Source: Craspedostauros australis (Eukaryota). From it: a stretch of 34,534 bases of DNA. Positions 1 to 31,350 of the stretch are shown one piece after another (position 1 is the stretch's first letter; each line of letters starts with the position of its first letter). Location of the stretch: contig JALAGF010005445.1 of NCBI GenBank assembly GCA_030167865.1, positions 1 to 34,534 on the forward strand, in the 5' to 3' direction. The translations under genes were made by a program, and so were the position numbers. The notes under the pieces were generated by a model. The model had not been told where the DNA came from. It made no database searches and saw nothing but the letters and a program-made list of their open reading frames with translations.

Positions 1-10
1 TGCCTCTCAC

Positions 11-1850
11 ATGCAGATGGAGTGTGATGACCCAATGCACTCAGCTCAATTTGCGCTCACGCCCAACCAGAAGAAGAAGACAACAACGAAACAATCCCAA
101 TCAACCAGAACGCGTACCAACAAGCACAAGCTCAGGAAGAAGATCACTCAAACAAATGACATCGCTTCTGCCACCAACNACACTCCAANCATCACAATTG
201 ATATNCCTGACATCACTNGTGTGACACATGCTGCTGCCAATGACACCACCNCTGNCNATAATGAACAGCCTTGCNCCACCACAGACAAACAACACACTGG
301 AGTATGTAACCNTTGTGCAGGGGTGATGCNTTTTGTGGACGACCGATATGTCCCTTTCGTGACATCGCTTATGGAAGATCACCTTGCGGAACACGCGACA
401 GAATTGGAGTCGATGCTCAGTGCCGCACCGGGGTTCAACAACGAAATACTGTGGTACATGGCACACAAAGTGCGCAGCAAGCTTCAATTTGGACAAATTG
501 AGCAGTACCTCAAAAATATCAACAACCAAGAGAATCGCGCACATGTGGTGCTGGACCACAAACAGAAAATTCTTCCGACTGGCCAAGGCGAAGCNNNNNN
601 NNNNNNNNNNNNNNNNNNNNNNNNNNNNNNNNNNNNNNNNNNNNNNNNNNNNNNNNNNNNNNNNNNNNNNNNNNNNNNNNNNNNNNATATCATTGTGAAG
701 GGGAGGCCAACTCAAGACACCCTCCAAGTTGGCGGGCTTCTCGAAATTGTGCAACAACAGGTGAGAAAAATTCTTCCATCAGTCACCGAAATTGTCATCC
801 AATCCAATAACGCGTCTTGTTTCGCGAGCCACGAGCACATCCTGCTGATCACATCAGTGCTGAACAAGAACCTTGGAACGCAAAATGTCCCCAAGATTGC
901 GGCCTGGATCTACACCGAAGCCCAAACCGGAAAAGGCCGCCTCGACACGCACTTTGCATACATCACTGTTGTATTGCGAGCGTATGTTCTGGAGGACAAT
1001 GACATCAAAACAGAACACCAACTTTTCAATGCACTGGAAGCTGGCAACATCGCAGGAACGACCACGGTTTTGGCGGATGCAGAATGCCTTGAGGGGCGTG
1101 TCCTGAGTTTCCCCGGCATGCCAAAGAAGCGTTTCTGCGCGAAAGGGCAAAAGGTACGCCAAACGCACGAGGTCAAGTTTGGAGACGATGAGGCCAATTT
1201 GGTGGCGGCATCTGGCGTCACAGATGATGTACTTGTCCCGTGTGTGGAGTGGGAGGGATGGGAAATCAACCAACTGGGTGTCCGCACGATCGCAACGCAC
1301 ATGTCAGGAAAGGAACCGTTCACCGCCGAATCACCAAAGAAGAAGAAGAAGACGCGAAAGTGGGGTGCTACCGCAGTGGAGAGCAAGGCGCTCGTGTTTC
1401 GCGATGCATTGGAGATGGGGCAAGGAGAGCTACCACACAACCACACCGCAAAATTGAAAGACCAGACCGCGGAAGCCGAAATCCCCCGACTTGCGGTGAA
1501 GGGCTGGGCAGTGAAAACAACGCGCAGCAACGCGGAGTTACCACGGTACGTACTGCAGAAATTGGATGAAATGAGCACGGCTGCCAAAAACAACCCGAAA
1601 AATCGACCAACAGAACACGAAGCGCACCGTAGACTGATGGAGCTGGAGGGAACAGAGACTGATTGGTTCACGCAATTGCACGGAAGTCCAATGCGCGTGA
1701 AATCGCACCTGACCGCGGCGTACTACAGCTCACAACGAGACGCGAAGAAAACAGCCACGGCAGCAGGTACGACCAACAACAACAACAAAACGGCATCAGG
1801 ATCATCACCATCACCATCACCATCACCATCACCATCACCATCACCATCAC

Positions 1851-1938
<88 letters not shown>

Positions 1939-2092
1939 TGCTAGGGAACCAACAGGTACGAAACCATCAGACAAGCAGAAGAGCCAAGAAGAGGAAGAGA
2001 TGGAAGAAGAGGAAGGGAGAATAGGATGTGGTGTGAGGCCAACACCACCAGGAGGCACGCGGAGAACGAAGAGATGGTCCCGCAAGAAGTGA
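11..2092 (+). mobile_element. Sola3-like DDD DNA transposase ORF, probably 5'-truncated by the window edge and probably inactive
   Basis: Ordered motifs HxxxCxxC, VVLDHKQKILP, QSNNASCF, YTEAQTGKGRLDTHFA, RAYVLEDNDI and KGWAVK parallel the DWAMKFLP / SDNAGCY / SxxQxGKGxCD / GWALK pattern I associate with Sola3 transposases. The second catalytic Asp reads Asn. Many n bases and a gap at 595-686. No TIR identified. Confidence 0.65.
1803..1938 (+). repeat. Compound hexanucleotide microsatellite (TCACCA)n then (ACAGCA)n, encoding (SP)n and (TA)n in the transposase frame
   Basis: Read directly from the sequence. Confidence 0.95.
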
Positions 2093-3219: not shown

Positions 3220-5937
3220 TCATGGCACCACAGCGCACGCTTGTACACCGATGCATTCTCCATCGGGGATGACGTAAGAGTTGTTGAAACACGAGGAATC
3301 GCCAATGCAGGCTCCGTCCCCTACCATTCCGGTGTTGTAGTAGCATGCTGCGGTTTCGTAGCACGACCCGATGCCAATGTCGGCCTTGTTGCCATAGCAG
3401 GCGTATGGGCCTTGGCAGGAGTCCTGGCCGATGGCGCCATAGTTGTCGCGACAAGTTGAGTTGCCACTGCAGGCTCCGTCCCCTACCATTCCGGTGTTGT
3501 AGAGGCATGCCCCGTTTTCGTAGCACGACCCGATGCCCACGTCGGCCTCGTTGCCATAGCAGGCGAATGGGCCTTGGCAGGAGTCCTGGCCGATGGCGCC
3601 ATAGTTCGTGGCACAAGCTGACTTGCCATGGCAGGCTCCGTCCCCTACCATTGCGGCGTTGAGGTAGCATGCGGTGATTTCGTAGCACGACCCGATGCCC
3701 ACGTTGGCTCCGTTGCCGATGCAGGCGTATGGGCCCCGGCAGGAGTCCTGGCCGATGTCGCCAGCGTTCGTGGCACAAGTGAAGTTGCCGAGGCAGGAGT
3801 ATGCAGCGATCATGCCTATGTTGCCGAGGCACGCAGAAGGTCCAACACAGGATCCCATGTCCACATCGGCCTCGTTGCCGATGCAGGCGTATGGGCCTTG
3901 GCAGGAGTCCTGGGCGATGGCGCCAGCGTTCGTGAGACAAGTTGAGTTGCCACAGCAGGCTCCGTCTCCTACCATTCCGGTGTTGTTGTAGCATGCTCTG
4001 GTTTCGTGGCACGACCGCATGCCCACGTCGCCCTGGTTGTCATAGCACGCATCTTCACCTTCGCAGGAGTCCTGCCCGATGTCGCCAGCGTTCCTGAAAC
4101 AAGTTGAGTCGCCACAGCAGGCTCCGTCTCCTACCATTCCGGTGTTGAGGTAGCATGCTCTGGTTTCGTAGCACGACCCCATGCCCACGTCGCCCTGGTT
4201 GTAATAGCACGCCTCTTCACCTTCGCAGGAGTCCTGCCCGATGTCGCCAGCGTTCCTGAAACAAGTTGAGTTGCCACGGCAGGAGTTTGTAGCGATCATG
4301 CCAGTGTTGAATGCACACGTAGTGGGTCCAATGCAAGATCCCATGCTGATGGGAACAATGTTTCGGAAGCACGCATCTTCACCGTCGCAGGACCCCGCGG
4401 CGACGCTACCAGTCTGCTGGCTGCATGCACGCGGTCCAATACAGGATCCCATGCTGATGGAGCCAGTGTTTTGGACGCACGGACCTTGACCGACACAACT
4501 TCCGCTTGCGATATCTCCTGTGTTGGAATAACAAGCAACATATCCCACGCACGCGTTCGTACTGACTGTGCCTTCGTTGGAGTCGCAAGCGAGTTTGCCA
4601 ATGCAGGATCCGGCGTCGACGTTTCCCGCGTTGAAGAAGCAAGCGTCCTCTCCAATGCAGGATCTGGCGTCGACGTTTCCCGCGTTGGAGAGACAAGCGC
4701 CCTCTCCAATGCAGGACCTGTCACTGATGTTGGCGTCGTTCACGAAGCAAGCACCCTCGCCGAGGCAAGCGCCAGTTCCGATTGCTCCTTCGCTGTAAGT
4801 GCATGCAGCTCTGCCTACGCAAGAGTTTTCCTTGACGTCGCCTCGGTTGCGGAGACATGCTCTGTCTGTGGTGCAAGAATTTTCGCTAATGTCTCCCCTA
4901 TTCTGGAAACACGAAGCCTCCCCGAAGCATGAGAATGAGGAGATATCGCCTGAGTTTTCGAGGCAACTACCAACGCCGTTGCAAGATTGCTCATTGACTT
5001 TACCGGTGTTGGCTGCGCAACTGAGGTTGCCATTGCAAGCGTAAGAAGGAATTGATATCTCTATGCCATCGCAGGCTTCCACACCGTTGCAAGCATAGGG
5101 AGCAATCGTGATGGCCGTTGTCTCGTTGGGACTGAATGCGCAAGAGTAATTGCCATTGCAGGAGTTGGGGCACACCGTCACGCGTCGGTCGTTGCCCCAC
5201 ACACACGCGGGAGCTATCTCAATGTCTGGTGCTTGACAGCAATTAGCCTCCTCGTCTGCGCACTTCGCGGTGACGTCTTCGGCCGTTCCAGTGAAGCAAG
5301 ACTTGAATGCTTTGTTGGACTTGGCAGACTTCTCAGCCTTGGCTCCCTTTGATGACGATTTCTCAGGCTTGGTGGACTTGAGCTGGCGGATGCGAACATT
5401 GAGGGTTTCGACCGTCCCCTCATGACGAAGTTCTGCGATGGACGCAGGCGACGCGCCCTTCTCGGCATCATCAGTGGTGCCTTGAAGACGGCCAAGATCG
5501 GTGAACTTGTGCTCAAGCTTTTGTTCAAGTTTGTTCTTGGTGTTGGTGGAAGAGGTGGCACGTCGATGATGGAAGTTGCTTGCCTTGGCCTTGGTGTTGG
5601 CCTCTGTCTTGGTGCTGGCGTCCTTGAAGTTGGAAACAAGATGGTCGATGTTGGGCATGGAGGAAGTGTCAGAGAGGAGCATGTTCACCTTGTCTTTGGT
5701 GTCTTGTGCTGTGATCTTGTTGTTGTCACCGTGTGCGGAGTTGAACGCCAAGATCTTGGCCTTATGCTCAGCTGCCAGCTTGCCGAACTTCGCTTGAAGA
5801 GCGTTGATGTCGACATCGATGTTGAGATCGGAAGTGACCTTGGTACGACCGCTCTTGTCGAGCACGGCATCGACGCCGTTGCAAATGATGCTCTGTGCGA
5901 TGACGAGAGCGAGGATGTCTTTCTTCATGGGAGGCAT
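3220..5937 (-). CDS. Secreted cysteine-rich repeat protein (~905 aa): signal peptide, Lys-rich N-terminal region, 36 x ~18-aa (S/A)CxGxxACxxNxGx(I/V)xxx repeats
   Basis: Uninterrupted ORF. First ATG at 5937 (MPPMKKDILALVIAQSIICNGVDA, signal-peptide-like). C-x5-C repeats run from 5163 to the C-terminus. Stop TGA at 3220-3222. No TM or GPI-like hydrophobic tail seen. Confidence 0.9.
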   Translation of the reverse strand: MPPMKKDILALVIAQSIICNGVDAVLDKSGRTKVTSDLNIDVDINALQAKFGKLAAEHKAKILAFNSAHGDNNKITAQDTKDKVNMLLSDTSSMPNIDHLVSNFKDASTKTEANTKAKASNFHHRRATSSTNTKNKLEQKLEHKFTDLGRLQGTTDDAEKGASPASIAELRHEGTVETLNVRIRQLKSTKPEKSSSKGAKAEKSAKSNKAFKSCFTGTAEDVTAKCADEEANCCQAPDIEIAPACVWGNDRRVTVCPNSCNGNYSCAFSPNETTAITIAPYACNGVEACDGIEISIPSYACNGNLSCAANTGKVNEQSCNGVGSCLENSGDISSFSCFGEASCFQNRGDISENSCTTDRACLRNRGDVKENSCVGRAACTYSEGAIGTGACLGEGACFVNDANISDRSCIGEGACLSNAGNVDARSCIGEDACFFNAGNVDAGSCIGKLACDSNEGTVSTNACVGYVACYSNTGDIASGSCVGQGPCVQNTGSISMGSCIGPRACSQQTGSVAAGSCDGEDACFRNIVPISMGSCIGPTTCAFNTGMIATNSCRGNSTCFRNAGDIGQDSCEGEEACYYNQGDVGMGSCYETRACYLNTGMVGDGACCGDSTCFRNAGDIGQDSCEGEDACYDNQGDVGMRSCHETRACYNNTGMVGDGACCGNSTCLTNAGAIAQDSCQGPYACIGNEADVDMGSCVGPSACLGNIGMIAAYSCLGNFTCATNAGDIGQDSCRGPYACIGNGANVGIGSCYEITACYLNAAMVGDGACHGKSACATNYGAIGQDSCQGPFACYGNEADVGIGSCYENGACLYNTGMVGDGACSGNSTCRDNYGAIGQDSCQGPYACYGNKADIGIGSCYETAACYYNTGMVGDGACIGDSSCFNNSYVIPDGECIGVQACAVVP
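3223..4284 (-). repeat. Coding higher-order tandem repeat, 162-bp (54-aa, 3 x 18 aa) period, about 6.5 copies
   Basis: CAGGCTCCGTC(C/T)CCTACCATT recurs at 3308, 3470, 3632, 3956 and 4118, all multiples of 162 apart. Confidence 0.95.
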
Positions 5938-6094
5938 GGTTACGTGTTGTTGTTGTTGTTGTTGTTGTTGTTTCTGCTTGTTGTTACTTGTTGTGTGTGC
6001 GCTTTGGCCTTGAGTCAATTTGGGTTGAATTGAGTTGGTCTGTTCTCGATTTTGTGGGTGATGGCAAGGAGTCCCTCGAAGGGTGGAACTCTCC

Positions 6095-6230
6095 TCATGT
6101 TATGTTGATCATGTTATGTTGATCATGTTATGTTGATCATGTTCTGCGTTGTTTGCGTTGTTTGCGTTGTTTGCGTTGTTTGCGTTGTTTGCGTTGTTTG
6201 CGTTGTTTGCGTTGTTTGCGTTGTTTGCGT
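6095..6230. repeat. Adjacent tandem repeats: 14-mer (TCATGTTATGTTGA) x3.5, then 9-mer (TGCGTTGTT) x9.5
   Basis: Read directly; lies about 160-290 bp upstream of the Cys-rich gene start codon. Confidence 0.95.
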
Positions 6231-8186: not shown

Positions 8187-10305
8187 TCACTTGCTGCTGT
8201 CGCCAGTGTGTAGGTATGACTTCTTGTGCTCGCGCTGTAGCTCTGACTTGATGTTCTTTGTGAAGCCATCACTCTGATTGTTCTCTGACTTGACGAATGT
8301 TGGAAATCCGGGGTATAGATATAGTCTAATGCTTATTAAACTGTACCGTTTTAGAACTGTGAGAACAACACATTCATTTCTCAAATCGTCGACTCGTTTG
8401 CCCATGATGATGTTGATGGCCTCCTGTAGTTGCCCCTCACAATCATCATTACAATCTCTCTCTGTCATGCCCATTTCATTGCTCATGACAAGTGCATTTC
8501 ACCATGCTCGTCTGCTGAGATATCGGTCTATACTCCTGAGGTGCATGCATGCTGATGCTTGATTCACTCTCTTCTCATCAGGCATCCATCACTCATTCAG
8601 TACACTCTTCCGTGTTGTTCACTCACTCTTCTCACATGTTCACTGGTGGTCACACTTGGTCAGAACATGGAGTTCTGGCATGATTAGTCCAGTTCTTCGA
8701 TGTTGTTCCAGTCCGTGCTTTGTTCTCCTTTGCTGGTTCTCTGTCAGTCACGTAATTATGTTCTGGGTTCCGAGCGACTCAACTGTGTTAGCGTATTCGC
8801 ATAGATGTTTCAGGTTAACCGGTCAACTCTCATGCTTGGAACACTTTGGTGTTCCAGTCTCCCTTTCACATCCATCGTTCGCCATGTCAGTTTGTCAGTC
8901 TCCTCAAAACATGTCACATCATTAGTCTGTCCGTCGTCCGTCATACTCTTGACACACAGAGGAGGAAGGTCTACAATCGACTTGGGAGTGTGTCCGACTT
9001 TGATAGATTGGTCAGTCTATTTTTGGTATTATGGGAGGTGCGGCAATCTAGGATAACACGACATAGTCGTACCCTCGATTCCTGACAGACGAAGATGATT
9101 TCGATGAGCTTGTCATTCACCATGTTGCGGAGGTAATGATGGTGTACGTCAATATGGCGAGAGCGTTGCGATGTTGAAGGATTCTTTGCGATGAAGATGG
9201 CTCCAACATTGTCAACTCTCACGGTGATTGGAGTCTTCACTGGCACTCCCACACTCTCCAGGAGTGGCATCACAAAGAAGATCTCCTTCGCCGCTTCGGA
9301 TAGCACGATGTACTCTGCCTCTGATGAACTGAGCGTCACTGCCTTCTGCGCCTTGGATCGCCAGAGGACAGAGACTTGACAGAGGTAGAGAATGAATCCG
9401 CCGACACTGATGCGAGTGTCCTTGTCTCTGGCGTATTCACTGTCGCAGAACATCTCCATGTTCCATGCGCTGCTGTCTGCCATGACGGGATGAATCTTCA
9501 GACCGTAGTGCTTCGTGTCGATGACGTATTTAATGATACGGTGCATCTCCTTGGTTGCAGCCTCGGTTGGTCCGTCGAGTACCTTTGTCAGCTCTCTGAC
9601 AGGATTGACGATGTCGGGACACGAATGCTTGATCAGGAAAAGGAGCATTCCCACTCCCTTGCGATAGTCAGCATGCTCTGCTGCATCGACCTTCTGCAAT
9701 CCGTTCTCTTCGGATGGGCGGATGATGCTCTGGCTCGGTGTTCCTGGGGTCGCGTAGCACTGCATCTTCTCCACCTCTGCAACAAACTCGGTGATCAGGT
9801 TTCGGATCAGATGTGGCTGGCGTAGGACGGCTGTCGTCTTGTCTGCGTTGAGCTGGATGTTGCAGCTGAGGTAGTCACCCAAACCCTTCTCGATGGTGAC
9901 CTTGAACTTGCTCTTCTGGATGTCGTTGATGAATTGCTCGAGTGCCTTCTGGTGTCCGCAACAGAAGCAGTCGTCAACGTAGATCGCCACGATGACTGTT
10001 CCATTCTTTGTCTTGCGATGGAAAAGGCACGGATCTGCCGCGCTCTGATCGAATCGCATTCCCTTCAGTGTTGATACGAGCATCTTGTACCATTGGCGTG
10101 CGCTCTGGACCAGCCTGTAGATTGGCTTGTGTAGCAGCAGCGCTTCATCTGGTGTGCTGTCCATTCCGCTTGGACAGTTCATGTACACCTCTTCTTCGAG
10201 ATCGCCGTACAAGAATGCCGTGACGACGTCCACGAGTGCGCAGTCCATCTTCTGCAGTAGCATGATCACCATCATCACACGGTGCGTGACATCGTGGATG
10301 ACAGG
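8187..10305 (-). mobile_element. Ty1/copia pol remnant (reverse transcriptase + RNase H), 5'-truncated and interrupted at 8298-9087
   Basis: Motifs DVVTAFLYGDLEEEVYM, LVQSARQW, ADPCLF, YVDD, CDSEYARD, SSSEAEY, VDNVGAI, RSRHID. Removing the insert rejoins IIFV to KSENNQSDGFTKN, the typical RNase H end. Confidence 0.95.
8298..9087. mobile_element. 790-bp non-coding insert (solo LTR or non-autonomous TIR element) with 6-bp TSD GACGAA
   Basis: Begins TGTTGGAAATCCGGGGTA and ends GTACCCTCGATTCCTGACA. GACGAA flanks both sides (8292-8297 and 9088-9093). It splits the copia RNase H coding sequence. Confidence 0.9.
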
Positions 10306-12675
10306 TGTTGGCAAGTTCCGTGATTGGAAGTGATAATCAGCAATTACACACAGGACAAGAGGGGAGCACCAAACACTGCACTTACTACACCGCCTGGGTG
10401 ATCAATCCAATAGGTGAAGTTGGAGATGTTTGGTGTATTTGGTTGTTGCTAAGTTAGTGTGTCAATTGATGATTGAGTGTGGTTTATGAGATGATGATCT
10501 CCTATTTCTAATGATGGTGCCTATTGCACGGTTGCTAACGTGCTGCTTGATTACCTCGTGGTTTCTCTCGCAGTCTTTCCTAAAACATTGCCCAAGATGG
10601 CATGTTGATCTACACGATACTCCGTGTTATTCTCGCCTTTGGGTCTTTCTTCATCTCTGTCTGATCTTGTCTGGTCTTGATCTCTGTTTGATCACATATG
10701 GATTGATCCGTCTACGTCGGCGGGGNNNNNNNNNNNNNNNNNNNNNNNNNNNNNNNNNNNNNNNNNNNNNNNNNNTTTGATCACATATGGATTGATCCGT
10801 CTACGTCGGCGGGGTGCATGCATCACCCCTGACGATGTTGTTCTGGATCCTAAATGTTGCTGCCACGTGCTCGATGATGCACTCGGCTAGGCTAGACAGG
10901 TCAGCATACCATGACTAAAATATAATCTCGATTCCGAGGATCACAATGACCGATCCTCTGACGTCATACGATGATGTCAGTGCCTACGTCATGTTCGATG
11001 ACAGTAGTGACTGAATATCAATCGTGTATCAAGACTCACTCGACTATACTCTCAAATCGAGTCGAATCAAAAATAATGAATCACGTTTCAGTCATGGGAG
11101 ATGGGTACCTAATTTCGATCTAGATGTTGATAGGAAGCCTACGATCATGGAAGATGGTATTGGTTGATAGTTGGTTCTGTTTGCTATTTCATTACGTTGG
11201 CACTCCGATCCTCTCGGTGTACACCAGTTGTCTTGCCCAATGCTCTCGGTGCTTCAATCTGTTTTGTAGATTCAGTCTCCGACTATGAGTCGGTACGTGA
11301 GATGCTCTCTCGCTCCTCTCTGTATTCTCTCTCTTTCTCTCTCTCTCAACATCGTGTGTTCGTGCTACACGACATTCTGTGTTCGATGCGTACTCCGCAT
11401 TCGATACTCCGTTCGTTCAGTACTGGTTCCTACTCCATGAGTACTTACCATTTGAAGTTCGCCTTCTGTATCCATGATCTTGATGCCCTTTGGTCATTGG
11501 ATCTTTGCCTCCTGCTCTGACTTGGAGACAGATGTCGACATGGTGACATGATGACATCCTGTCGACGTCAGTAGGCGTCCTTCTGCTCTCCAGATGTCAC
11601 GTTCCATTGGTGATGCAGNAGTCTGTCAGATGATATCGTCATCTGAGGTTTAGTTGGGAAGTACCTCGAGATTCTCTTGGTACCATTGATGGATGGATGG
11701 ACGATCTTCCAATTCTCTCAGAAATCGTTATTTGCAAATTTCCTCCAGAAATCTTGCCCCTTTTCGTGTGTTCCATTTCCGTTGTAATTCTGACGAATCA
11801 CAACATACTATCAACACGAGTCTAGTTATACCGTCCAAGTGCGTATGAGAGAATAGCGGGTGAACGATGCACATATACACGTACATCTTGACATATACTC
11901 ACATGTACATCTCGACATACAAAGCAGGCATTTAGGCTCACATGTTGGCATCTGTTGATGTCACTAGTCATGTTCCTGGTTCTGTTTTGCTATCCTTGCC
12001 CACCAAGATTAGGATAACAGAAAGCAACGGCAGATGGGGCGATGTACAATTGCGATGGGGTGTAGCTGTTCCCTCCAAAGAGGCCACATCCTGCCGCTAC
12101 AGTTGTCGTTCCTAATTATTGTTGCCCATTCTGGTGCTTCTCTTCTTGACCCGGCCAGCTGCAAACACGCATGCGCAACTATTACACATACAACCTACTC
12201 TGCACCAATGTACAGCAAGGGGTATCACAAGGGGCACCCAACAAAGACTTCAAGGCAAGTACCAATCCGAAAGTCGATCATGCAAATGCAGTAAAACAAC
12301 CTGATCGCAATGCGAGATGGGCAAAACATGTTCCAGACCGTCTGTCAGGCTGTCCACGCTGACAATCGTGACACACAAAAACGAAATCGAACTTGGGAGA
12401 CCAAGAAGGATGAAGCTCGATTGAAGAAGCACAGGAAACAATTGGAGATGAACAAAAAGCAGAGAAGGGAAAGAAAAACGAGGAAGGAAACTCAAATCTC
12501 GGAGGGGTTCGCATCCCCTCCCGTGACTTTGGCCCGCACACATGCGTTTCGATGAATTCGGAGTGCGATGAGAAAAGGGCCCATGCCTCAGAACGCACAG
12601 ACCCACTTTTTCCTCATACCCACCACGTAGGCCAACTCATTAGGGATATCAAATACCATCGTCTACGCATTAACC

Positions 12676-14409
12676 ATGATACCATTGCTGATCGCAACAC
12701 TGCAGCTCTCGGGCTTGGTTGGTGCGACGGCGCTGGCTGCGCTGATCCTCAACAAGCTGCTGAAACAATTCGTGTACAGCGAGCCACGGGATGCCCACCT
12801 TGCACCGCTCGCACCCGACGTGAGTTTGATTGAGGCAGTGGCCGGGATCTCCGGCCTGGATGGGCCACATTTCCTCTACGAGATCTTCCAGAAGCTGGGG
12901 CGCTCATCTGATGATGAAAAGGCAGCGGCAGATACGCCATGGGTCATGCGCATGCCGCTCCCCATGTTTGCCCCGCTCGCATACCACAGGCTGACCTACG
13001 ACCTCACTGTCATTGGGGATGCCAACTTCGCGCTCGATGTCATGATCGATCCCACCACGCTCAAGGCGCCCGGCTACCGCGATTTCGATCAACTCTGCCA
13101 TGGCCAGAAGTCCATGTTCTCGACCGAATCTACGGAATGGAAGAACCGGCGCAAGGCCGTCGCAGGATGCTTCTCGCAATCGCATCTGGATCGCATCCAA
13201 TCCATCTGCCAAACGCAGTTGAATCAATGGATTGACGATGTGCTGGAACCCTGTGCTGAAGACGGCAAAGCCTTCAACATCGGCGAGGAAATGATATACC
13301 TCACCCTGCGCATTGTTTGTGAATCTGTTCTCGATGATGAGGACCACATCATCGACGATGAAGATCTCAAGCTCTTCAAGCATCATCTGCAGATCGCGGC
13401 AACGGAGTTCATCTTCATGGACCAATTCCATCAGTTCATGCCATGGTTGTTCCCCGCGGTCTGGAAAGCCAAGCGATCGAGCAAGTATTTGCAACAGTTT
13501 TCATTGCGCTTGATCGATAACTATCGCGCCAAGCACAAGGCGTACTACGACGAGATGAATAGCATCGGCGGATTGTCATCCTCGCACAGATCAGTATCGA
13601 CAGCAACAAAAGTCAATGTGCCCAAGGACACCATCATTCGACGTATAATGGAAAATGCGACGTATGCCGATGATCTGGGACGGGCAGCGGACATTACTCT
13701 ATTGTTGATTGCTGCACACGATACCACTGCATACTCGATCTCTCACACGCTCATGCACACCACACGCAGCAACCCCAAGGAGTTACAGACCTTCCGCGAC
13801 AAAGCGAAGCAGATTGTGGCCAACACCACATCGCCGTCGCCGTCGCCACAATCGACAGACAAGAGCAAACTGAGACAGCTGCATTCGATCGACGAACTGC
13901 AATGGATGATCCAGGAAGGCATGCGACTTTCGCCTGTCATCGCGATGGGTGTCCCCAGATGGATCGGGAAGGATTGGATGTACACGATCGGCGAAGACAC
14001 CGACAAGGACAAGAGCAGCAACGACAGCAGCACGGGCAACAACGTCAGCCGTCCGATCAAGCAACGCACATTTTTCCTACGCAAGGGTTCCATCGCTCTC
14101 CTTCCCTTCTTTCCCTCCTTCCGCAATCCCAAGTACTTTGAGGATCCCGACGAGTACATTCCATCTCGATGGGATTCCAACAACAACAAAAAGAACAAAT
14201 CAACTACGGTGCCCACACAGCTTTCCTCCTTTGCCAATGGACCTCGTGGCTGCTTGGGCAAGTACATGGCCAAGGTGGAGATGGAGACAGTCCTTGCAAC
14301 CTTGCTGTCCAAGTATGATTTTGAAATTGAGAACGAAGGGCATCTGCAATTCTCGTTGACATTGCAACCGATTGGTGCGCAGTTGATTCCGAGGAAGATC
14401 GGAGCATAG
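12676..14409 (+). CDS. Cytochrome P450 (577 aa, intronless, N-terminal membrane anchor)
   Basis: Hydrophobic N-terminus, C-helix WKNRR, I-helix AAHDTT, K-helix EGMR, PSRW, and heme motif FANGPRGCLG. Confidence 0.95.
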   Translation: MIPLLIATLQLSGLVGATALAALILNKLLKQFVYSEPRDAHLAPLAPDVSLIEAVAGISGLDGPHFLYEIFQKLGRSSDDEKAAADTPWVMRMPLPMFAPLAYHRLTYDLTVIGDANFALDVMIDPTTLKAPGYRDFDQLCHGQKSMFSTESTEWKNRRKAVAGCFSQSHLDRIQSICQTQLNQWIDDVLEPCAEDGKAFNIGEEMIYLTLRIVCESVLDDEDHIIDDEDLKLFKHHLQIAATEFIFMDQFHQFMPWLFPAVWKAKRSSKYLQQFSLRLIDNYRAKHKAYYDEMNSIGGLSSSHRSVSTATKVNVPKDTIIRRIMENATYADDLGRAADITLLLIAAHDTTAYSISHTLMHTTRSNPKELQTFRDKAKQIVANTTSPSPSPQSTDKSKLRQLHSIDELQWMIQEGMRLSPVIAMGVPRWIGKDWMYTIGEDTDKDKSSNDSSTGNNVSRPIKQRTFFLRKGSIALLPFFPSFRNPKYFEDPDEYIPSRWDSNNNKKNKSTTVPTQLSSFANGPRGCLGKYMAKVEMETVLATLLSKYDFEIENEGHLQFSLTLQPIGAQLIPRKIGA

Positions 14410-15873: not shown

Positions 15874-16492
15874 TTGCCAACAATCAGTCACAAACTCTTC
15901 CGATGGATGCTGCAATTCATCCACGCAGATGATACATCTTTCGTTGGCGACAACACAAGCAAATTCGAGCTTTCAAGACATCCTGGCTGCTGCCACTCGC
16001 TTCGGTTGCTGGAAGCTGAAGCTGTACTTCGAGACACAACTCGCCGTGAAGCATCTCGATGTGGATTCATGCGCCAAGCTTCTACTATTCTCAGATGCGA
16101 GCAGTTGCTTCTTGTTGAAGGATGAATGTATCAAGGTTGTGGGAAAGAACATGACCGAACAGTTTAGGCAGAGCTGCACTGCCACATTGTTGCAGTCTGG
16201 TGAGCTGATGAATGAGATATGCCAGTACATCAACAGAGAAGCAGTCAGGGGGGCCTCTACCGCTGATCATAAGTTGAAACGAGCCAGGAGTGAGAAGCTG
16301 GACGAGTCGTTGGAGCAACGGGATGACGTGGTGCTAGAGGAGGACATGAATTGGTCGTCGCTTTTGAAGAAGATTTGTTTGCTGGAAGAGCAACAGATCA
16401 TAAAAATACCCATGCACTTGTTCGCTGTGTGGTCTGCTCCACTCCACTCCACTCCGCTCCACCCTCTGGAGAGTTTATTGTTTGGAGTCTAG
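15874..16492 (+). pseudogene. BTB/POZ-domain gene fragment (C-terminal BTB helices plus BACK-like region), frameshifted
   Basis: ISHKLFRWMLQFIHAD lies in one frame. QDILAAATRFGCWKLKLYFETQL...LDVDSCAKLLLFSDASSCFLLKDECI lies in another. Both are typical BTB/BACK helices. No intact N-terminus. Confidence 0.65.
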
Positions 16493-16779
16493 GCCGTTCT
16501 TGGTTCGCAGTCTTGACACGATTGAGTCACGTTCGTGGGCATACACGACTCGGTCAGCAGACACACACATTCGCCGTTCTCGTCGCTTCTCCTTGTCATG
16601 CAGCAGGGCGAGCAAGAAAACCACAACACGGTGCACACATCCACCAACTGAGCAGGCCTCCATGCGACACTTCCCCATTGCCCTTCGAGCGACCACACCA
16701 TCGTCCTTCCCCACACCTCCAGCAACTCGCGACCGACATTCCCGATGCGGGTGACCATCCTGCAACGCAGCCAAAGCAC

Positions 16780-19563
16780 ATGACTTCGTCTGCCGGGCAT
16801 CCACGACGCAGCACGGATCCACAACCTTCGCACCAACATGCATGGCACAAGCGGCCAAGGCGAAGGAGCGTGTACAAGTGCAGCCTCGGGGTCATCGTTG
16901 CGCTCATCATTCTGCTCCAAACGTATTCGTGGATCCAGATCAGTCACACTCAAACGAGAGATGACGTCTCGCTGTTCTCTCAATGGAGGAGTCAACTGGA
17001 TGTGTCAGCAGATCGCCAGATCCAGTCGCACTCGCGGTCGTCTGACCGTTCACGAAGGATACACGGCAACAGCAATGCAAGGAGTCACAGTATTGCCGAT
17101 GGCGAGATTGCGCACAGCATCCCTCAATCCCAGATTGGGGATGACATCATCCGTGACATCTGCGCTGTCCCACCTGGCGAAGGTCCCGAATTGAGATGGG
17201 GGTTTCAAGCCATCATCAAAGTGGACAATATCAACCTGGAGGCTCAGCTGCGATCGTTGCGAGAAACATTGCAAGCAGACCAGCCAGAACGGACCGACGC
17301 ATACGACATCCCCAAGGTGCTGTGCGTGGTCATGACAGACTCCACGAGGCACAGCGATGTCATTCCTGCCATACTGGCCACGTACGCACAGCAGTGCGAT
17401 GGATTCGTGGCCGTTTCCAACAAAACGGATGCCACGATAAATGCAGTCAACATGTATGCACGCGATTCGATCATACGAGTAGACCGCAGCAACGATTCTA
17501 CCACAGGCGTCGACCATCGGCTGTATCCTGCGATGCAATACATTCAAAAGGAATTTGGCGATTCCCAGCAATTTGACTTCTTCCACATCGCAAGCGATCA
17601 GGCATACATCTATCCAAACAACTTGCGGTATCACCTCGCACGCATTGCGTGGAATGTGACTGGTGCGGATGGAAATTTCTTAATGTACATGGGGGATGGG
17701 ATGATTCCCAACCGGCGTTCCGACCAGATGTTTTGCACCAGCGGATCGGGAATCACCTTCAATTCAGAATCGCTGAAGGTAGCGACAGCCTCCGAGATGA
17801 CGAAATGCATGGCGACAGCATCGCCGCAGGAGCAGGACACTGAAGAAGGCGACATCGGATCGCATCGGTACGACACGCGGTTAGGACACTGCCTGTCTGC
17901 GCATGCTGGAATTCAGAAATGTCAGATGGGATTGGATGCTACCGATGAGGCGAGCTTGTACCATGAGCACGGTCCCAACTTCTCCGCGCTCTGGGTGATG
18001 GCCAATCATGGACCGCCCATCTACGGCCAGGAGATCATGAGACAGTTTGGGATCCGCATTCGCAATAAGTTGATGCGCACTTCCAGGACCACCGTTTCAT
18101 TTCATTTGGTCGACGGACTGGAATCCATGGAAGGGACCACGGCCAGCCATCTGTACCGTATCCATGCCATTCACCAGAATCTCTGTGATCATGTTTGGAA
18201 GGTCTCGAAGGGTGCATTGGATGCAGCGGGTCACCCTGGATACGTTCACGACGCCACGTACATCAAGGAGCATCCGTTGCCATTCACGGAGAGGATTCCG
18301 TACTACAAACGAAGCTACCCATTTCCGCAGACGAGGGGGATCTGCGAGGTGCCGTACGGATCGGGATCGGAGGAGCCGTTGGGGAATACGGCATTGCAGA
18401 AAATACGGAACTTCCTCGTACACGAGCTGCCTGCGGCTGAGGAACCAGGCGGGGCGGGAAAGAAGTTGAGGATTTTGTGCATGGTGTACACGCACTCCAA
18501 TAGCCATGACCGGGTCCGAGCGATTGCAGAAACGTACGGCCCGCGCTGTGATGGATTCATGGCAGCATCCAACGTGACGGATGTGGAGATTGGTGCAGTC
18601 AATATCCTTCATGACGGTCCTGAATCATGTAAGTGGGAGACTAGGACAGTTCCTTCTCTGCGCGGGGCATGGTTGAGGCAGAGGAGAGCGTTGCGAAATG
18701 TGTCTGCGTATGCAGGTATGCCTGTGGCTAGCTCTGCGGCTGTCCCTCCGAATGCGCCATTCATCTCACATGCTCTGCACCGAATCTGCGATTCCGTTTG
18801 GCTTGTTTCGATACTATGATCCCCGTCGTCGTCGTCGTCGTCGTCGTCGTTGTTGTTGTTGTTGTTGTTGTTGTTATCAATTGGGATGCTGTTACCAGAT
18901 GACAACATGTGGAGCAAGGTGCGGTCCATCTGGCGTTACGTGTACGAACACTATCTGGACGAGTACGACTTCTTCCATCTTGGCGGTGATGATCACTACG
19001 TCATTGTTGAGAACTTGCGCCACGTTGTATCCACAGGGTCATGGCGCGGGCCATGGAATCAGTCGGCGCCGCTGTATCTAGGCGGCCCGATGGTGGCATT
19101 CCCGAACAAATTCAAGCGGCTTTGTGGTGGAGGGGCTGGGTACACGTTGAATAGACCCGCGCTGAAACTGCTCGTGGAGGGCTTGTTCTACAAGCAGGAT
19201 TGCTGGCCGTATTGGCAGACGCCGAAGGAGGATTACAACATCGCAAGTTGCTTCCGCTATGCCGATGTGCTTTGCGAAGATACCAACGATGACAGGAACG
19301 AAACGCGATATCACCAATCCAACGCCTACGAGCACGCGAGGTGGAAAACCAGCGGGCGCAGCGTGTGGCGCGCTGGCGACCTGGAGCTGTACCACGGCAT
19401 CACCTCCAAGGGTGAGCTCGGTCAGATCTCGGAGACAAGCGTGTCATTCCACCTCAAAGTCGACGCAACGAAGAGAAACCCGATGCCAGGGCATTGGGTT
19501 GACAATGGTGTGCGGCGGTATGACGCGATCCTCCATGATCGTTGCTCGGACAAGTCGCCCTGA
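16780..19563 (+). CDS. Type II membrane GT31 (core-1 beta-1,3-galactosyltransferase/C1GALT1-like) protein with two tandem GT-like domains; exons 16780-18628 and 18899-19563 (~837 aa)
   Basis: TM segment SLGVIVALIILLQTYSWI. Motifs RILCMVYT, TYGPRCDGF, FFHLGGDDHYVIVENLR, PLYLG, CGGGAGY, ED, SVSFH. A GTAAGT...CCAG intron restores GPESY-DNMWSKVRSIW in frame. Start codon is inferred. Confidence 0.88.
18824..18875. repeat. Intronic compound microsatellite (GTC)n(GTT)n
   Basis: Read directly, just upstream of the splice acceptor at 18898. Confidence 0.95.
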
Positions 19564-21951: not shown

Positions 21952-24194
21952 ATGGCACGGTCTCTCGCTGAGCAAAAGGCGTTGGCCTTCGGACCCAAGT
22001 TCTCCGCGTCCCTGTCGATATTGGGTTCGGCGGCAATCGTCTGGGAGGTGCTGCGGGACAAGAAGAAGCAGGGCATGGTGTACCATCGCATCTTGCTTGG
22101 CATGAGCATCTTCGACCTTCTCATCTCCTCGGCCTGGTTCATGAGCACCTGGCCAGTCCCAAGCGATACCCAGAGTACGTACAAGTAGAGTGCGGATGGT
22201 ACCAGCGATCATCCTTGTTGCGTTCGGCCCACTTTCTCATCGTCATTGTTGGTGCAGCGCAGGGAGCTGCACCGACACCTCATCAACCTCGTCCCATGCC
22301 AAGCAGAAAGCTCACTTCTGACACCACAACCTCTGCATTCCCTGCATACTCATACCCTTTCCCTTCTCAATGTGGCTGCTACTGCCGCTGCTGCTGCTGC
22401 TGCTGCTGGTGTTGCCGCTGCTGCTGGTGTTGCCGCTGCTGATGTTTCTCCACCCTCCTTCTCTTCCATCACGCATCTGTTCCTCGTACCACACCAGACA
22501 TCTGGGGGGCTGTAGGAAACCAAGCCTCATGCAACGCCCAAGGCTTCTTCATCCAGCTCAAGATCGCAAATCCCATGTACAACTCCGCCCTCGCATTGTA
22601 CTATGTGCTGGTGGTGCGGTACGGTTGGAAGGAAGAACGTCTCAAGAGGGTGGTCGAGCCTTTCTTCCACACCATCCCGGTCGTGCTGGCCGTCTCCACA
22701 TCGACTGCTGCCTTGGCGCTCGGGTTGTTCAACAACGCCAACCTATGGTGCTGGCTGGCGGCCTTTCCCTCCAACTGCTACCAGGGCAACAACGATCACG
22801 ACATATCAGAGATGGATGACCTGCCGCAGTGCGAGCGCGGGAAGCACGCATGGATCTACAGACTCGCCTTCTTCTACACCTGGTACTGGGCGAGCTTTGT
22901 TTGGGTCACCATCGCCATGTTCCTCGTGTACTGGACAGTCCGACAGGCAGAACAAGCCACCCAGAAGTACGCCGCGAGCACGAGAACTGCATCAGGGACT
23001 CCCTCATCGTCAAGATCCTCGAAGAACACGCGGCGAGTTGCAACGCAGGCGGTCCTCTACATCGTGGCGTACGGCCTGACGGCTCTGTTTGCCACCCTGA
23101 CTCGAGTCCTTCAAGCATTCGCCGACAAGGTGCCGTTCATTTTCGTGTTGGGTATGACCATCTTCTACCCCATGCAGGGATTGTTCAATTACCTGATCTA
23201 CATCCGTCCCAGATACCTGCGAAACCGTGAGAAGGGCCTCAAGGGCATTCAGGCAGCGACATCTCCTCACAAAGCCAAGAAGCGCCGACGAAATCACCGC
23301 AGCAAGCAGAGCAAAAAGAACACGAGCTCGAATCCCACCGTTAGCGATGACAACGTCAACGACGATGCAGCGGCGGCCGCGGGCAACAGCAATGGTGATG
23401 AGAAGCACCCCGGTGCGTTCTCGGGGCACAACCGAGTCATCAACATTTCCCTGGAATCCGGGGCGACAGCGATCTCGGGCGGCCACTCGATGGATCTCTC
23501 CAGCCCCAACGTGGGTTCATCCGCCAATCGCCCGTCGCAAGTCACCGACGACGAAGGAGACTACTTCGGTGATGACTACAAGCTTGGTTGTATGCTGGCA
23601 CGTGACAGTGACATGTTCGATTCCACAATCTCATCACAGCTCTTCCGGGATAGCGCCCTCTTCCAATCGCCCACAGCCAGATTCTCGAGATATTCCACTA
23701 CAAGCGCCACCGGCGAAGTCGTCACTATAGCGTCGCCGCACAGGGCGGGGCTGTCCATTCCATCGATGTCACCCACCCCAAAATCGCACTTCCAGCAACA
23801 GAAGACATCCACTCTGATGACAGATGACCACGACGAAAGCGAAGGCAACGGAGAGAAGAGCTTGCACACCGCCAGTTCATCATTGTCGCCTCGATTGCCC
23901 CAAGAGGCTCCTGCCGAACAAGCACAGCCACAGTCACAACCACGCTCACAGCAGCAATTGAGTCCTTCATCAATGATGAGCAACGGCAACCGGGTACGCG
24001 AGGCCATACGCCAAGTGTTGGCTGGTGAAGAATGTTCGCCCGAGGTTCCAACATCGCCGTTTCCAGCTCGAACGAGTTTGAGAAACTTGGATGTGCAACG
24101 CATCGCGAAGCTATACGACAGCAGCGATGAGAGCAGCAGTGACGACAACAGCGCTGTACGAGATGATGTTGGCAGAGGCGATGATGGCGTTTGA
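21952..24194 (+). CDS. 7-TM GPCR-like receptor (cAMP-receptor/Git3-like) with long Ser-rich C-tail; exons 21952-22174 and 22498-24194 (~639 aa)
   Basis: Seven hydrophobic segments. Motifs SLSILGS, YHRILLGMSIFD, CNAQGFFIQ, YNSALALYY, WCW, PMQGLFNYLIYIRPR. A GTACGT...CCAG intron joins SDTQ-N-IWGAVGN in frame. Confidence 0.88.
22375..22441. repeat. Intronic imperfect (GCT)n microsatellite
   Basis: Read directly; explains the spurious poly-L, poly-A and poly-C ORFs here. Confidence 0.9.
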
Positions 24195-27573: not shown

Positions 27574-29809
27574 ATGGATGAAGACAGGGTCAAGTTGGTG
27601 AAGGTCGAAAAGTTCGATGGCAAGGACTTTGACGAGTGGTTGGACATCTTCATGGCTCTCGTTGCGTGCAAGGGATACAATGAGGTGTTGGACGAGACGG
27701 TCGCGGTACCAAGGCATGACCAGGCAGTCAAGAGTGAAGTGGAAAAGAAAGCAGAGCGGATGAACAAGGATGCGTATAGCACACTGATGCTCAGCACTGA
27801 GGGACTGGCAAGAAGCATCATGAGGGAGTGCAAGACAGATCGCCAACCCAAGGGTGATGCTGTGGCAGTGTGGAAGGAACATCAAGACAGGTGTGCACCA
27901 AGGGACAAGGCAGACAAGGTGACCAAACTCAACGAATTCACCAGGTGCACTCTACAGACACTGTAAGAAGACCCAAGCCAGTGGATGTTGTGGATCAACA
28001 AGATAGTCAAGGAACTGAAGGAATCCAGCATGAAGAAGATTGATGACAACTGCATTGCTCATGTGATGGTAAACCAACCCAAGGAGATCTACAGTGAGGC
28101 GAAGACGACACTGGACAGAGAGTTGAATGACGGAGATCCCAAGTGGGAGTCGCTGAAGAAGCCCCTGATCCAATTCTGGAAGAGGAAGGTGAGGACAAGT
28201 GAGGATGGGAGCACTGCCTCGACTTCAACCAACAAGGCCTTCAACACCATGGTGAAGGGATATCAGAGCGGGTTCAAGGGCACGTGTCGCAAGCATGGAG
28301 AATATGGACACAAGGCAGCAAAGTGCACCAAGTCACCAACCAACAACAATGACTACCTCCAACAATCAAGTGCTACAGATGCAAGAAGCAAGGGCACAAG
28401 GCCAAGGATAGTCTGGATATGAGCGGAAAGGATGGACAAGCAGGAGGAACCAGGAATGCACATGCAGGAATGTTTGCTGGCATGGCAGCCATATCCCATG
28501 CAACAGGGACAGATGACAGGCAGGCAGACAGGCAGACAGGCAGACAGGAGACAAGAACAAGTGGCTGGCTGATACTGGAGCCACATGCCATGTAACATGG
28601 TCAACCGAAGAGATCACAGATCTGGTGGCGGTCACCGATGACAGACAGGTTCAGGTGGGAGACTGCAACATGGTGACACCAACCCATGTGGGGGAATTCC
28701 ATGGAGAGTGCCTGGACGGCACCGAGTTCATCTTGAAGTCAGTCTTCGTGGTCCCAGGATTCACACACAGCATCATCAGTATTCCCCAATTCCTGGAGAA
28801 GGGATGCACACTCAGTGGAGGCAAGGATGATTTCACTTTGAAGCATCCAAGCACTGACATCAGTTTGAAGTTCCAACATGACGAGGACAATGGAGAAGGC
28901 AACCTGTACTTCCTCAAATGCAAGTCAAAGGGGAAGCCAATGGAATCCATCATGGCAATGGGAACTGTGGAGAGGAAGATCACCAAGGATGTCAATCGAG
29001 CTCATCGCATCCTGGGGCATCCAAACGAGCGCTACACCAAGCTGACAGCCGCAAAGGCAGGTTGGTCACTCATTGGAACTTGGAGAGCATGTGAGGCAAA
29101 AGCGAAGGGAGTGCAGAAGAAGGCCTTTGAGAAGGCTACCAACATCGCTCAATGCCTATACTTTGACATATCGGGTCCATACAAGAAGATGGCCAAAGGA
29201 AGCAACTACTGGCTGTTGATCGTGGATGAGGTTTTGCAGAAGAAGTCGAGTTACTTCCTGAAGAACAAGAGCCAACTCGCAGGACAGGTGGAGACTCTGC
29301 TCACCACACTCAAAGGTGCAGATCTGAAGGTGGAGGCCATTCGGTGTGACGACGCTGGTGAGAACCAAAGGAAGCTGGAGAAGGTCTGTGACGAGCATGG
29401 AATCCAACTGGAGTACACTGCCCCCAACACACCGATGATGAATGGTGTTGTCCAGAGAGGATTCGTGACGATTGGAGATTCGGCACTCCCGCTTATGTTG
29501 AATACTGATCTCACGGACGAGGCACAAGGACGGCTTTGGGCGGAGGCAATCCACACAGCAACCTGGCTCCATAACCTGACAGTCACGACAAGCAGGGACA
29601 AGAGTCCAGATGAAATCTTCTATGGCCAGAATCCCAAGCTCTACCTGCATCTGATGGAATGGGGACGTGTCGGATACGTGACAGATCGCGCCAAGAAGCC
29701 AAAGCTGACACCGAAAGCATTCAAAACGGTGATGCTGGGCTATGCTGACAACCATGCAGGCGATACATACCGGATGCCGAAGGTCGACACCAACAAGGTG
29801 GCGATATCC
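27574..29809 (+). mobile_element. Ty1/copia gag-protease-integrase remnant, degenerate, truncated before RT
   Basis: Gag start FDGKDFDEW; in-frame TAA at 27964; two decayed zinc knuckles (CRKHGEYGHKAAKC, and CYRCKKQGHKAKDS in a shifted frame); protease WLADTGATCH at 28562; HRILGH; integrase FDISGP, IRCDDAGE, NGVVQR (E to Q); LGYADNH. Protease-then-integrase order is copia-type. Confidence 0.93.
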
Positions 29810-31350
29810 TCCCATTCTCGACCACCGATTGTCAAGAGCACAGCTGTGGACACAGTTGATGACAGCAATGACTCCGATGTGGAAGACGATTGGATTGTGG
29901 ATCCATCCAGCGACTGTAACAGTTATGATGACGAGGATGCTCCCACCAAAACGGTTTCTGTCATTGCCAACAACATCAACACAGATGTCTACAATCAAGC
30001 AGACACCCAGGTCGCAGCTGGGACAACTCCAGCTGAACTCATACCAGATTTGGTTTGTCCTCTTCAGTCAACAACCAACAACGCAAACACTCCAAATACA
30101 AATGAACAGGATCAGCCATCGCCTGTGGCCACAGAGGGAGAATCCATGACGAAAACAGAGCGATTGGCAACCATGGATCTTGAAAAGAAGCTCCTCGATC
30201 CAATAAAGGAGCAATTCAAGGTCACAGTCGGCTGTGCATGCACATCAGCCTACAATCTCTTGAAAGAAGAGGTTCAACAACTTTGCATGAACACTGTGGA
30301 TCTGTGCGGGATGCTGCAACCAGATGTTGCAAGACTGATTGATCTCTTCTTTGATGAGAAATCTGAGATCTACCATGATGCCTTTGCTTTGACTCCAGTC
30401 ATATTCATGCCCAAGGAGTATTATCAATTCATGTGGGCATTTGCTTACCAGGTCAAGCGTGTTTGCACCGTCAAGGAACTGTTCAATATCGAGTCAGTTG
30501 ATGGCATCCCTGGTTTCCCCACCAACTAGGAGTACCGCAACCTTTGGAAGCGGATCAACAAAGGGGCACGATCTGGTAATAAGCAGAGGAGGCACTTCTG
30601 AAGTCACCTACAGAAGGCTTCCAATAAACTTCTTGACAAGGTGGCTCTGAGAGACATGGAAACGGAATGTGTGGTGACCTTGGATGATGATAAGGTCCAT
30701 TCATACAGCAATGGAAATACTGGTGGACTGTCTATCAAATGCCATGTCCAAAGCAACAGACCAGAGTTAGTTTTCACAGGTCATCAGGAGTGCTCTCCTG
30801 TTTGTCTGTACCTTCATCGATCATACCTATCCATTTCACTATGCCTCTCATCCACTGTTCAACAATTTGTCACAGTCCGGTTGCAATTTCTGGAGTCCGC
30901 ACTGCATCAGCCATGCCATGTGGAATCGGCTTCATCTGTGAACGACATGATGACAACTTCGAAGCAACGATGAAATCGGTCAACCAACAGTTTCTCAACC
31001 ATGGCACACTTCTAGATGACATGACCCTAATGATTAATCGTGGGTTCATCGATATCAAGTTCAGGAAGCAGTTGCTTGAACTTGGCATTGGCATACAGGG
31101 GATGCACAAGCGAACTGGGTCTGTTCCGTTTGGTTATGGAGCCCATGGAACCACCAATGGGAAGCAAATCTTGATCCAACAGGGGGGACCCAAACCTATG
31201 TGTGTGGTAGTTTCCAGCAAGCTGAACAGAAAGAAGTCTGAATGTGTGGCCTACTGTGACAACAGGAAAGTTGTGTGGACCATGTCTTCACAGCCACAGC
31301 ATTTCTCCTGGGACCTGAAACTTCGCAACCCTGCTGACGAAAAGTGATAC
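29810..31350 (+). pseudogene. Degenerate DDD-type DNA transposase, piggyBac-like (tentative)
   Basis: The frame continues through stops at 30527 and 30599 to VVTLDDDKVH...GL...HV.SNR. After a frameshift come LMINRGF (DRGY-like) and GMHKRTGSVPFGYG (GTxKR...PF-like). Boundaries are approximate. Confidence 0.5.

Follow-up and report, generated by a model that had tools for sequence, protein, structure and literature searches.

A minus-strand gene on contig JALAGF010005445.1, of which the whole stretch of 34,534 nucleotides analysed is referred to here as the window, encodes a protein (P0001) in which a candidate diatom RXL endoprotease site, Arg-Gln-Leu (RQL), and a Lys/Ser-rich segment directly precede a long and regular cysteine-rich repeat domain. 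By analogy with described biosilica proteins, this arrangement suggests that P0001 is a secreted diatom cell-wall protein in which cleavage at the RQL would expose a basic Lys/Ser tag that attaches an acidic solenoid rod to the silica wall; a probability of about 0.4 is assigned to this reading. An initial annotation had drawn attention to the RQL and to a Ser-rich segment with nine lysines, nearly all in KXXK spacing, at 5302..5388, in front of a Cys solenoid. The sequence and the coordinates proved to be exact, the element (minus strand) corresponding to residues 184–212 of P0001, that is, the RQL followed by a Lys/Ser-rich 26-mer. The Cys-rich domain also begins where it had been placed, with Cys214 following the tag directly (27 residues between Leu186 and Cys214). 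The features of the gene and the protein are collected in Table 1.

Table 1. Features of the gene and of the encoded protein P0001; positions are those of the window.
Feature	Residues	Position	Strand	Description
Whole gene, protein P0001		3220..5937	minus	Single-exon intact open reading frame, 905 amino acids; stop codon 3220–3222
Signal-peptide-like segment	1–24	5866..5937	minus	Hydrophobic core 8–19; V-D-A at 22–24
Pro-region ('RXL domain')	25–186	5380..5865	minus	162 amino acids; ends R184-Q185-L186
RQL, candidate diatom RXL endoprotease site	184–186	5380..5388	minus	Lys at P1'
Lys/Ser-rich tag	187–213	5299..5379	minus	9 Lys, 7 Ser, 7 overlapping KxxK; net charge +7
Cys cap	214–282	5092..5298	minus	Starts the solenoid; CFTG[TS]…V…C…CC…C.W…VC..SCNG..AC
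Rod	283–905	3223..5091	minus	35 successive C-x5-C units in exact 18-residue spacing; predicted DUF7640 β-solenoid
DNA tandem array		3307..4283	minus	Period 162 bp (54 amino acids = 3 coils), 6 copies, 81% match

P0001 looks secreted, as had been proposed initially, since a single hydrophobic segment is present at the N-terminus, immediately behind the first ATG (residues 8–19, with the best 12-residue Kyte–Doolittle value, 2.63, at residue 8) and none is found elsewhere, no other 19-residue stretch exceeding 1.6. Two AlphaFold2 models (m61d39bd6f326 and mdc459b70f685) were calculated, one of the whole protein from a 60-sequence alignment (model 1) and one of residues 1–380 from a nine-sequence alignment (model 2). 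Residues 1–24 are helical in both. Ala10, Ala14 and Val22-Asp23-Ala24 are invariant across a subfamily of four proteins formed by P0001 and its closest relatives, and a signal peptide would plausibly be cleaved after Ala24, with V-D-A at −3 to −1. The secreted pro-like region of about 190 residues in the initial annotation is present but shorter, with 162 residues following a signal-like segment of about 24. It is predicted to be helical at residues 44–120 and has very low confidence from about residue 121 onwards in both models. Across the subfamily, the pro-regions differ in sequence, in length (114–162 residues) and in net charge (−13 to +4).

In silaffins, cingulins, silacidins and frustulins, pro-regions are described as being removed, or repeats separated, by an as yet unidentified diatom endoprotease that recognizes RXL (PMC4557024). 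An 'RXL domain' downstream of the signal peptide is regarded as a typical feature of biosilica-associated proteins, among them folded ones that contain Cys, such as Sin1 (PMC5525289) and SiMat7-like proteins (PMC5501833). A penta-lysine pattern, K..K..K.{1,2}K..K, is reported in 29% of silica-associated proteins compared with 1.5% of background proteomes, and two KxxK within ten residues give weaker targeting (bioRxiv 10.1101/2021.09.18.460806). A lysine-enriched region (LER) is defined as at least two KxxK no more than four residues apart, and a screen for proteins with a signal peptide, no transmembrane helix and an LER-like region or UM motif led to two Thalassiosira pseudonana proteins being tested, both of which were located in the frustule (PMC9650480).

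In P0001 the RQL is a predicted site downstream of the signal-like segment, and the tag that follows is predicted to be disordered, with a predicted local distance difference test (pLDDT) score of 26–38 in both models. The tag matches the penta-lysine pattern twice, in overlapping positions at residues 197 and 200, and its seven overlapping KxxK within 27 residues fall under the LER definition, so that its description as silaffin-like is borne out by both patterns. Outside residues 187–213 only one KxxK is found, at residue 50. The contribution of composition was assessed by shuffling residues 25–213 of P0001 20000 times. This region holds 27 Lys, the N-terminal third of the protein being Lys-rich throughout, and 2491 of the 20000 shuffles produced a 26-residue stretch with nine Lys or more; Lys density alone is therefore weak evidence. 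The penta-lysine pattern was reproduced in 285 shuffles and at least seven KxxK in 29 residues in a single one, so the i,i+3 periodicity of the lysines is clearly non-random.

When 1.84 billion representative sequences were searched in full with HMMER, 382 proteins reached E ≤ 0.001; the best 150 of these, together with P0001 and one earlier match, form the 152 DUF7640 proteins examined here. The family was matched by 19 of the 19 relatives scanned. Among the matches listed, three share the signal segment of P0001: P0004 from Craspedostauros australis (44% identity over the matched stretches) and P0009 and P0065 from Stauroneis constricta (34% each). The C. australis relative A0A7R9ZT78 (P0153) clusters with P0004, and the named close relatives of P0001 are all diatoms. 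So is every source of a relative with both the signal segment and the cap; these shared parts and the tag, at 34–44% identity to diatom proteins, point to a diatom host, probably a raphid pennate. The four subfamily members are only 28–36% identical over the region of the junction and tag. In the place of the RQL, the three relatives have RDL-K, RRA-K or RRL-K, followed by tags of 43, 20 or 26 residues that abut the invariant cap directly. The tags of all four comprise 20–43 residues, with 5–10 Lys, 6–13 Ser and a net charge of +5 to +7, and the RXL site with its tag is thus conserved, at the level of sequence, in the closest relatives. A segment lacking from homologues had been named initially as evidence against frustule targeting; this is the case for most of the family (see below) but not for the closest relatives, all three of which keep R-x-L/A-K and a tag before the cap. 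A kexin/furin site as the common feature of these junctions was rejected, as P0001 and P0004 have no dibasic site and only the Arg at P3 is universal.

From signal segment and pro-region, through RX(L/A)-K junction and Lys/Ser tag, to cap and 18-residue coils, P0001 and these relatives are built alike, and they are true homologues. The cap has residues that are invariant in all nine cap-bearing proteins (Cys214, Phe215, Gly217, Cys226, Cys233, Cys234, Cys245, Cys256, Cys260, Gly262 and Cys266) and has pLDDT values of 57–79 in model 2. The rods of the three relatives are acidic (net charge −13 to −20). P0001, with 35 coils, is about twice as long a protein as these relatives. The 162-bp tandem array, with six copies at 81% match, indicates that the rod of P0001 was lengthened recently by internal expansion.

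A combined element, taken as R-x-[L/A] followed within six residues by at least five Lys in 20, is present in seven of the 152 DUF7640 proteins and lies upstream of the repeats every time; in shuffled proteins (200 rounds) the mean number was 0.485 and the maximum was three. In three metagenome DUF7640 proteins (P0025, P0030 and P0032) an RXL is followed by a basic cluster, PT/Ser-rich linkers and the repeats. The strict penta-lysine pattern occurs in two of the 152 proteins, P0032 and P0001, the latter being the only one of the four subfamily members with a match, and 11 of the 152, the whole subfamily among them, have two KxxK within ten residues, as the weaker pattern requires. In P0032 (1266 residues) the penta-lysine matches lie at 197 and 205, in a protein that also has PT-rich linkers and FG-GAP repeats and ends in a DUF7640 domain; judged from sequence, a Lys cluster has here been joined to this domain a second time, independently. 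When the N-terminal part of P0001 was used in protein searches that rely on a word index (residues 1–230 against proteins of near length and 1–270 against shorter ones), nothing emerged; the HMMER search did recover the relatives, so this blank reflects the word index. A metagenome scan with the N-terminal alignment gave 240 pattern matches, of which none was confirmed, and the ESM Atlas gave no usable match for residues 1–260.

DUF7640 (PF24646) is the sole Pfam match of P0001 (E = 2.4e-81; seven stretches score 270.3 bits, where the gathering cut-off is 28.1). The repeat units follow the consensus G-S-C-[IVY]-G-x-x-A-C-[YFL]-x-N-x-G-x-[IV]-G-x; both Cys and the Ile/Val are kept in all 34 units tabulated and the Asn in 31. 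From the cap onwards (residues 214–905) the protein contains 80 Cys and has a net charge of −50. Both models give a regular solenoid in which each coil takes up 18 residues, with pLDDT values above 90 for about residues 420–680 in model 1 and of 87–94 for residues 283–380 in model 2, so that the Cys solenoid, or rigid rod, of the initial annotation is supported as a prediction. Model 1 superimposes on left-handed hexapeptide-repeat helices with a root-mean-square deviation (r.m.s.d.) of 2.8–2.9 Å for LpxD and GlmU (LpxD 2iu8_A, Z = 16.0, r.m.s.d. 2.9 Å over 186 residues; 4e75_A, Z = 15.8; GlmU 1hm0_A, Z = 14.6). The best fit of model 2 is instead the right-handed bactofilin 2n3d (Z = 9.3, r.m.s.d. 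2.6 Å over 99 residues), and on left-handed helices it reaches an r.m.s.d. of only about 11 Å. Since the two models are of opposite handedness, what they support is limited to a triangular 18-residue solenoid. Two weak indications lean towards the left-handed form: 41 matches of the hexapeptide pattern [LIV][GAED]xx[STAV]x in the rod and a faint match to the NCBIfam LpxD model (E = 0.007; 15.5 bits, far below the cut-off of 207). Pfam Hexapep did not match P0001 at E up to 1, Foldseek against the PDB gave nothing at E ≤ 0.001 (best GlmU, E = 0.076) and a PDB sequence search with P0001 returned no relatives. The Cys-rich part is accordingly described as a predicted triangular β-solenoid with regular 18-residue coils. 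A coil of a β-helix usually rises by 4.8 Å, at which the 35-coil rod would be about 17 nm long. An antifreeze-type Cys β-helix was rejected, as the unit consensus contains no Thr ladder; the species of the named relatives are temperate.

In the mechanism that these features suggest, an N-terminal signal peptide would direct P0001 into the endoplasmic reticulum and an RXL-specific endoprotease would, as the conservation of the motif implies, cut after Leu186, with loss of the variable 162-residue pro-region. The mature protein would then begin at Lys187 and present the 27-residue disordered basic tag at its new N-terminus. By analogy with the penta-lysine clusters or LERs of silaffins, cingulins and the T. 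pseudonana protein Tp5357, this tag would direct the protein to forming silica or hold it there, and the acidic, disulfide-rich 35-coil β-solenoid, the fold of which is predicted, could lie on the frustule or within it as a stiff strut or part of a coat. It is conceivable, if rather unlikely, that P0001 stands for a hitherto unrecognized class of diatom frustule proteins in which a silaffin-type, RXL-released and probably Lys-modified tag is grafted onto an acidic, disulfide-stapled DUF7640 rod of about 17 nm. Set into the biosilica or pinned to it, such a rod would act as a strut or spacer on the nanometre scale, and the basic tag of one molecule together with the acidic rod of its neighbour might drive self-assembly into a templating lattice.

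Several observations weigh against a role in silica. The RQL is the only RXL in P0001 and 0.83 would be expected from composition, so a single RXL is by itself not significant; one close relative has RRA in its place. The pro-region of 162 residues is much longer than the 30-residue RXL domain of Sin1 (PMC5525289). The silaffin-type assignment of the cluster holds for the penta-lysine pattern and the LER definition but not for the strict silaffin-like K[SG][SG]K, which has no match in P0001; a published silaffin-like screen uses repeated KXXK in which X is Ser or Gly (PMC5501833), and in the tag the X positions are Ser, Thr, Pro, Glu, Gly, Ala, Asn and Phe. The penta-lysine pattern also matches the 1.5% of background proteins mentioned above (bioRxiv 10.1101/2021.09.18.460806). 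Deletion or mutation of LER1/2 in CinW2 left its location unchanged, and LER3 and LER4 alone were mostly intracellular (PMC9650480), so that LERs are neither necessary nor always sufficient. Within the family, 145 of the 152 proteins are without the combined element, including the cap-bearing P0031, P0036 and P0129; in P0031 (from Seminavis robusta) and P0129 the cap directly follows the signal peptide.

The distribution of DUF7640 points in the same direction. Among pennate diatoms the family occurs in C. australis, S. constricta, S. robusta and Fragilariopsis cylindrus, and among centric diatoms in Skeletonema menzelii and Cyclotella cryptica, but it is also found in bacteria, namely Chloroflexi (Thermoflexales/Anaerolineae, with proprotein-convertase P-domains) and Myxococcota. 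Its neighbours in eukaryote-like proteins are PT repeats, FG-GAP repeats, DUF7633 and a VWD-named region (the last in a protein from Seminavis robusta), and bacterial copies stand beside Ig-like domains. The bacterial occurrence and the adhesion-type neighbours argue that the solenoid is not silica-specific, and the profile of DUF7640 is that of a module in general use outside the cell, for structure or adhesion. P0005, P0016, P0057 and members of their clusters represent the part of the family that is common to diatoms and bacteria, and gene transfer between the two is possible. No publication on DUF7640 or PF24646 was found in the literature searched, nor anything on CCRYP_008459, the DUF7640 protein of Cyclotella cryptica; the family is without a described function, and the initial remark that this architecture is not among the described frustule proteins stands to that extent.

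A serious alternative, if a somewhat less likely one, is that P0001 is a protein of the extracellular matrix, of mucilage or of adhesion, in which the Lys/Ser tag would bind an anionic (sulfated or carboxylated) exopolysaccharide or neighbouring acidic rods; RXL cleavage may still occur in this case. Craspedostauros australis and Stauroneis constricta, the sources of the closest relatives, are benthic raphid diatoms that glide, yet non-gliding centric diatoms (Skeletonema and Cyclotella) have DUF7640 too. Cys-rich repeat proteins are among the components of C. australis trails, but no link between DUF7640 and trails was found in the available part of the trail literature (bioRxiv 10.1101/2023.03.06.531300). 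The domains that accompany DUF7640 (the VWD-named region, FG-GAP with PT, PT alone, bacterial Ig-like domains and P-domains) would suit adhesion, and bacterial adhesins are among the structural neighbours of the models at lower Z. With rods of net charge −13 to −50 and tags of +5 to +7, self-association of tag to rod is possible. What speaks for silica rather than matrix is the pairing of an RXL with a KxxK-periodic tag, which is the signature described for biosilica proteins in the sources cited.

The Lys/Ser stretch could also be a flexible low-complexity linker at the propeptide junction that carries no targeting or binding information, with function residing wholly in the solenoid, for example in Ca2+ binding or as a protective coat. 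Tag length and sequence vary, with only the composition kept, the Lys count of the tag is readily reached on shuffling, tagless cap-bearing relatives exist and some LERs have no targeting effect (PMC9650480). Against this, the KxxK periodicity lies far beyond what composition gives, the charge and the R-x-L/A-K junction are kept at an identity of only 28–36%, and the element recurs in three more DUF7640 proteins with otherwise different N-termini; a mere linker is accordingly considered improbable.

That the open reading frame is a decaying repeat-rich frame or belongs to a non-diatom eukaryote, with a coincidental resemblance to the motifs, is most improbable: the exact P0001 sequence is absent from a collection of 15 billion proteins and the region is rich in microsatellites and retroelement fragments, but all 905 codons are open, the 35 units all keep both Cys and an exact 18-residue register, diatom proteins have the signal segment in conserved form, and both ends coincide with those of P0004, a 457-residue relative from a transcript marked complete, the N-terminus of P0001 aligning with it and the C-terminal end (…GECIG….) closing the final coil at the same point. 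The opposite strand and the other frames of the gene contain no family at E ≤ 0.001 and no Rfam family.

No second copy of the gene was detected in the window by tblastn, apart from the internal repeats. The 5' flank of the gene (5945–6230) is dense in microsatellites, with (TGT)n at 5945–5994, a 14-bp unit repeated 3.5 times with 100% match at 6095–6143 and a 9-bp unit, TGTTTGCGT, repeated ten times at 6140–6230. Pieces of Ty1/copia-type retroelements lie at 8971–10401 (minus), 28517–30529 (plus) and 32841–34532 (minus), the last of which is broken by a run of N; RVT_2 reverse transcriptase was matched twice and a Pol β-barrel with an SH3-like integrase region once. A long open frame at 12631–14409 (plus) matches cytochrome P450 (PF00067, E = 2.1e-36) over the C-terminal part of the model only. 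In the ESM Atlas the clusters nearest to it consist of fungal P450s, of little taxonomic value, and its placement there goes no further than Eukaryota. Three further long open frames at 16327–19563 (plus) and 22443–24194 (plus), of 830, 247 and 583 residues, have no Pfam match at E ≤ 0.001. Those of 830 and 247 residues are adjacent, in different frames and with similar-looking stretches, and may therefore be a single intron-bearing gene or a tandem pair. A 696-residue open frame at 2–2092 (plus) runs off the start of the window and contains many N; towards its end Ser-Pro and Thr-Ala dipeptides recur in long runs, and Pfam gave no match to the part that was scanned.

If attachment of the rod to silica is correct, a rigid folded rod with the processing and targeting signals of biosilica proteins would differ in kind, as a building block, from the known biosilica-associated proteins, which are mostly disordered, repetitive polypeptides (PMC5525289), and it would offer a means of putting defined structures into the silica of diatoms. 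The uncharacterized family DUF7640 gains a first testable functional hypothesis, and a small subfamily is singled out that is suited to a comparison of tag-present and tag-deleted forms. One member is from Craspedostauros australis, cells of which have been plated on selective nourseothricin agar (bioRxiv 10.1101/2023.03.06.531300). Should the protein belong to matrix or adhesion instead, DUF7640 would join the poorly known protein inventory of these diatom materials.

Comparison with described proteins places P0001 near several systems and within none of them. The Cys-rich repeat proteins of the C. australis adhesive trails include CaTrailin3 and Ca5255; the CaTrailin3 repeats have six conserved Cys and no match to a known domain, and are set beside P0001 by description only, and Ca5255 has DUF4215, which P0001 does not match. 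That text makes no mention of an RXL or a Lys tag (bioRxiv 10.1101/2023.03.06.531300). The hexapeptide-repeat acyltransferases LpxD, GlmU and LpxA (left-handed) and bactofilin (right-handed) have 18 residues per coil, as does P0001, which differs from them in its predicted extracellular location, in having two Cys per coil and in being without a catalytic context.

Frustulins resemble P0001 in being acidic, Cys-rich and secreted; they are wall glycoproteins with a presequence, and RXL motifs have been reported for them. They coat the wall once the silica has formed. Their marks are ACR hexapeptides of the CQGDCD/CEGDCD type and VPGCSG, polyglycine or polyproline linkers and a Trp-rich domain (PMC4712521). 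An identity as a frustulin was rejected, as P0001 has neither hexapeptide, even in relaxed form, no runs of five or more Gly or three or more Pro, and a single Trp. Sin1 and the SiMat7-like proteins share with P0001, where these parts are predicted, a signal peptide, an RXL domain ending in R-x-L and a folded, Cys-containing luminal domain, which indicates that RXL processing is not confined to disordered silaffins; unlike P0001, they have a C-terminal transmembrane anchor and an NQ-rich or eight-Cys domain, carry no Lys cluster and do not belong to DUF7640.

The T. pseudonana proteins with LERs or penta-lysine clusters that were compared (Tp5357, Tp12162, the silaffin tpSil3 and the cingulins CinY2 and CinW2) have in common with P0001 a signal peptide (putative in P0001), the lack of a transmembrane helix, an RXL and a Ser-rich Lys cluster with KxxK spacing. 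The closest in make-up is the 24-residue LER of Tp5357, which is much like the P0001 tag and occurs in a protein with two RXL motifs (PMC9650480). These proteins are otherwise largely disordered or repetitive, have no DUF7640 solenoid and no sequence homology to P0001, and their clusters are rich in Ser and Gly (K[SG][SG]K), which the P0001 tag is not. Cingulins alternate KXXK regions with Trp- or Tyr-rich regions (PMC4557024), and an identity as a cingulin was ruled out by the one K region (residues 187–213) and the one Trp in the 905 residues of P0001. The architecture thus belongs with the predicted silaffin-like proteins, already a large class, and stands out among them because the cargo of the tag is a folded rod.

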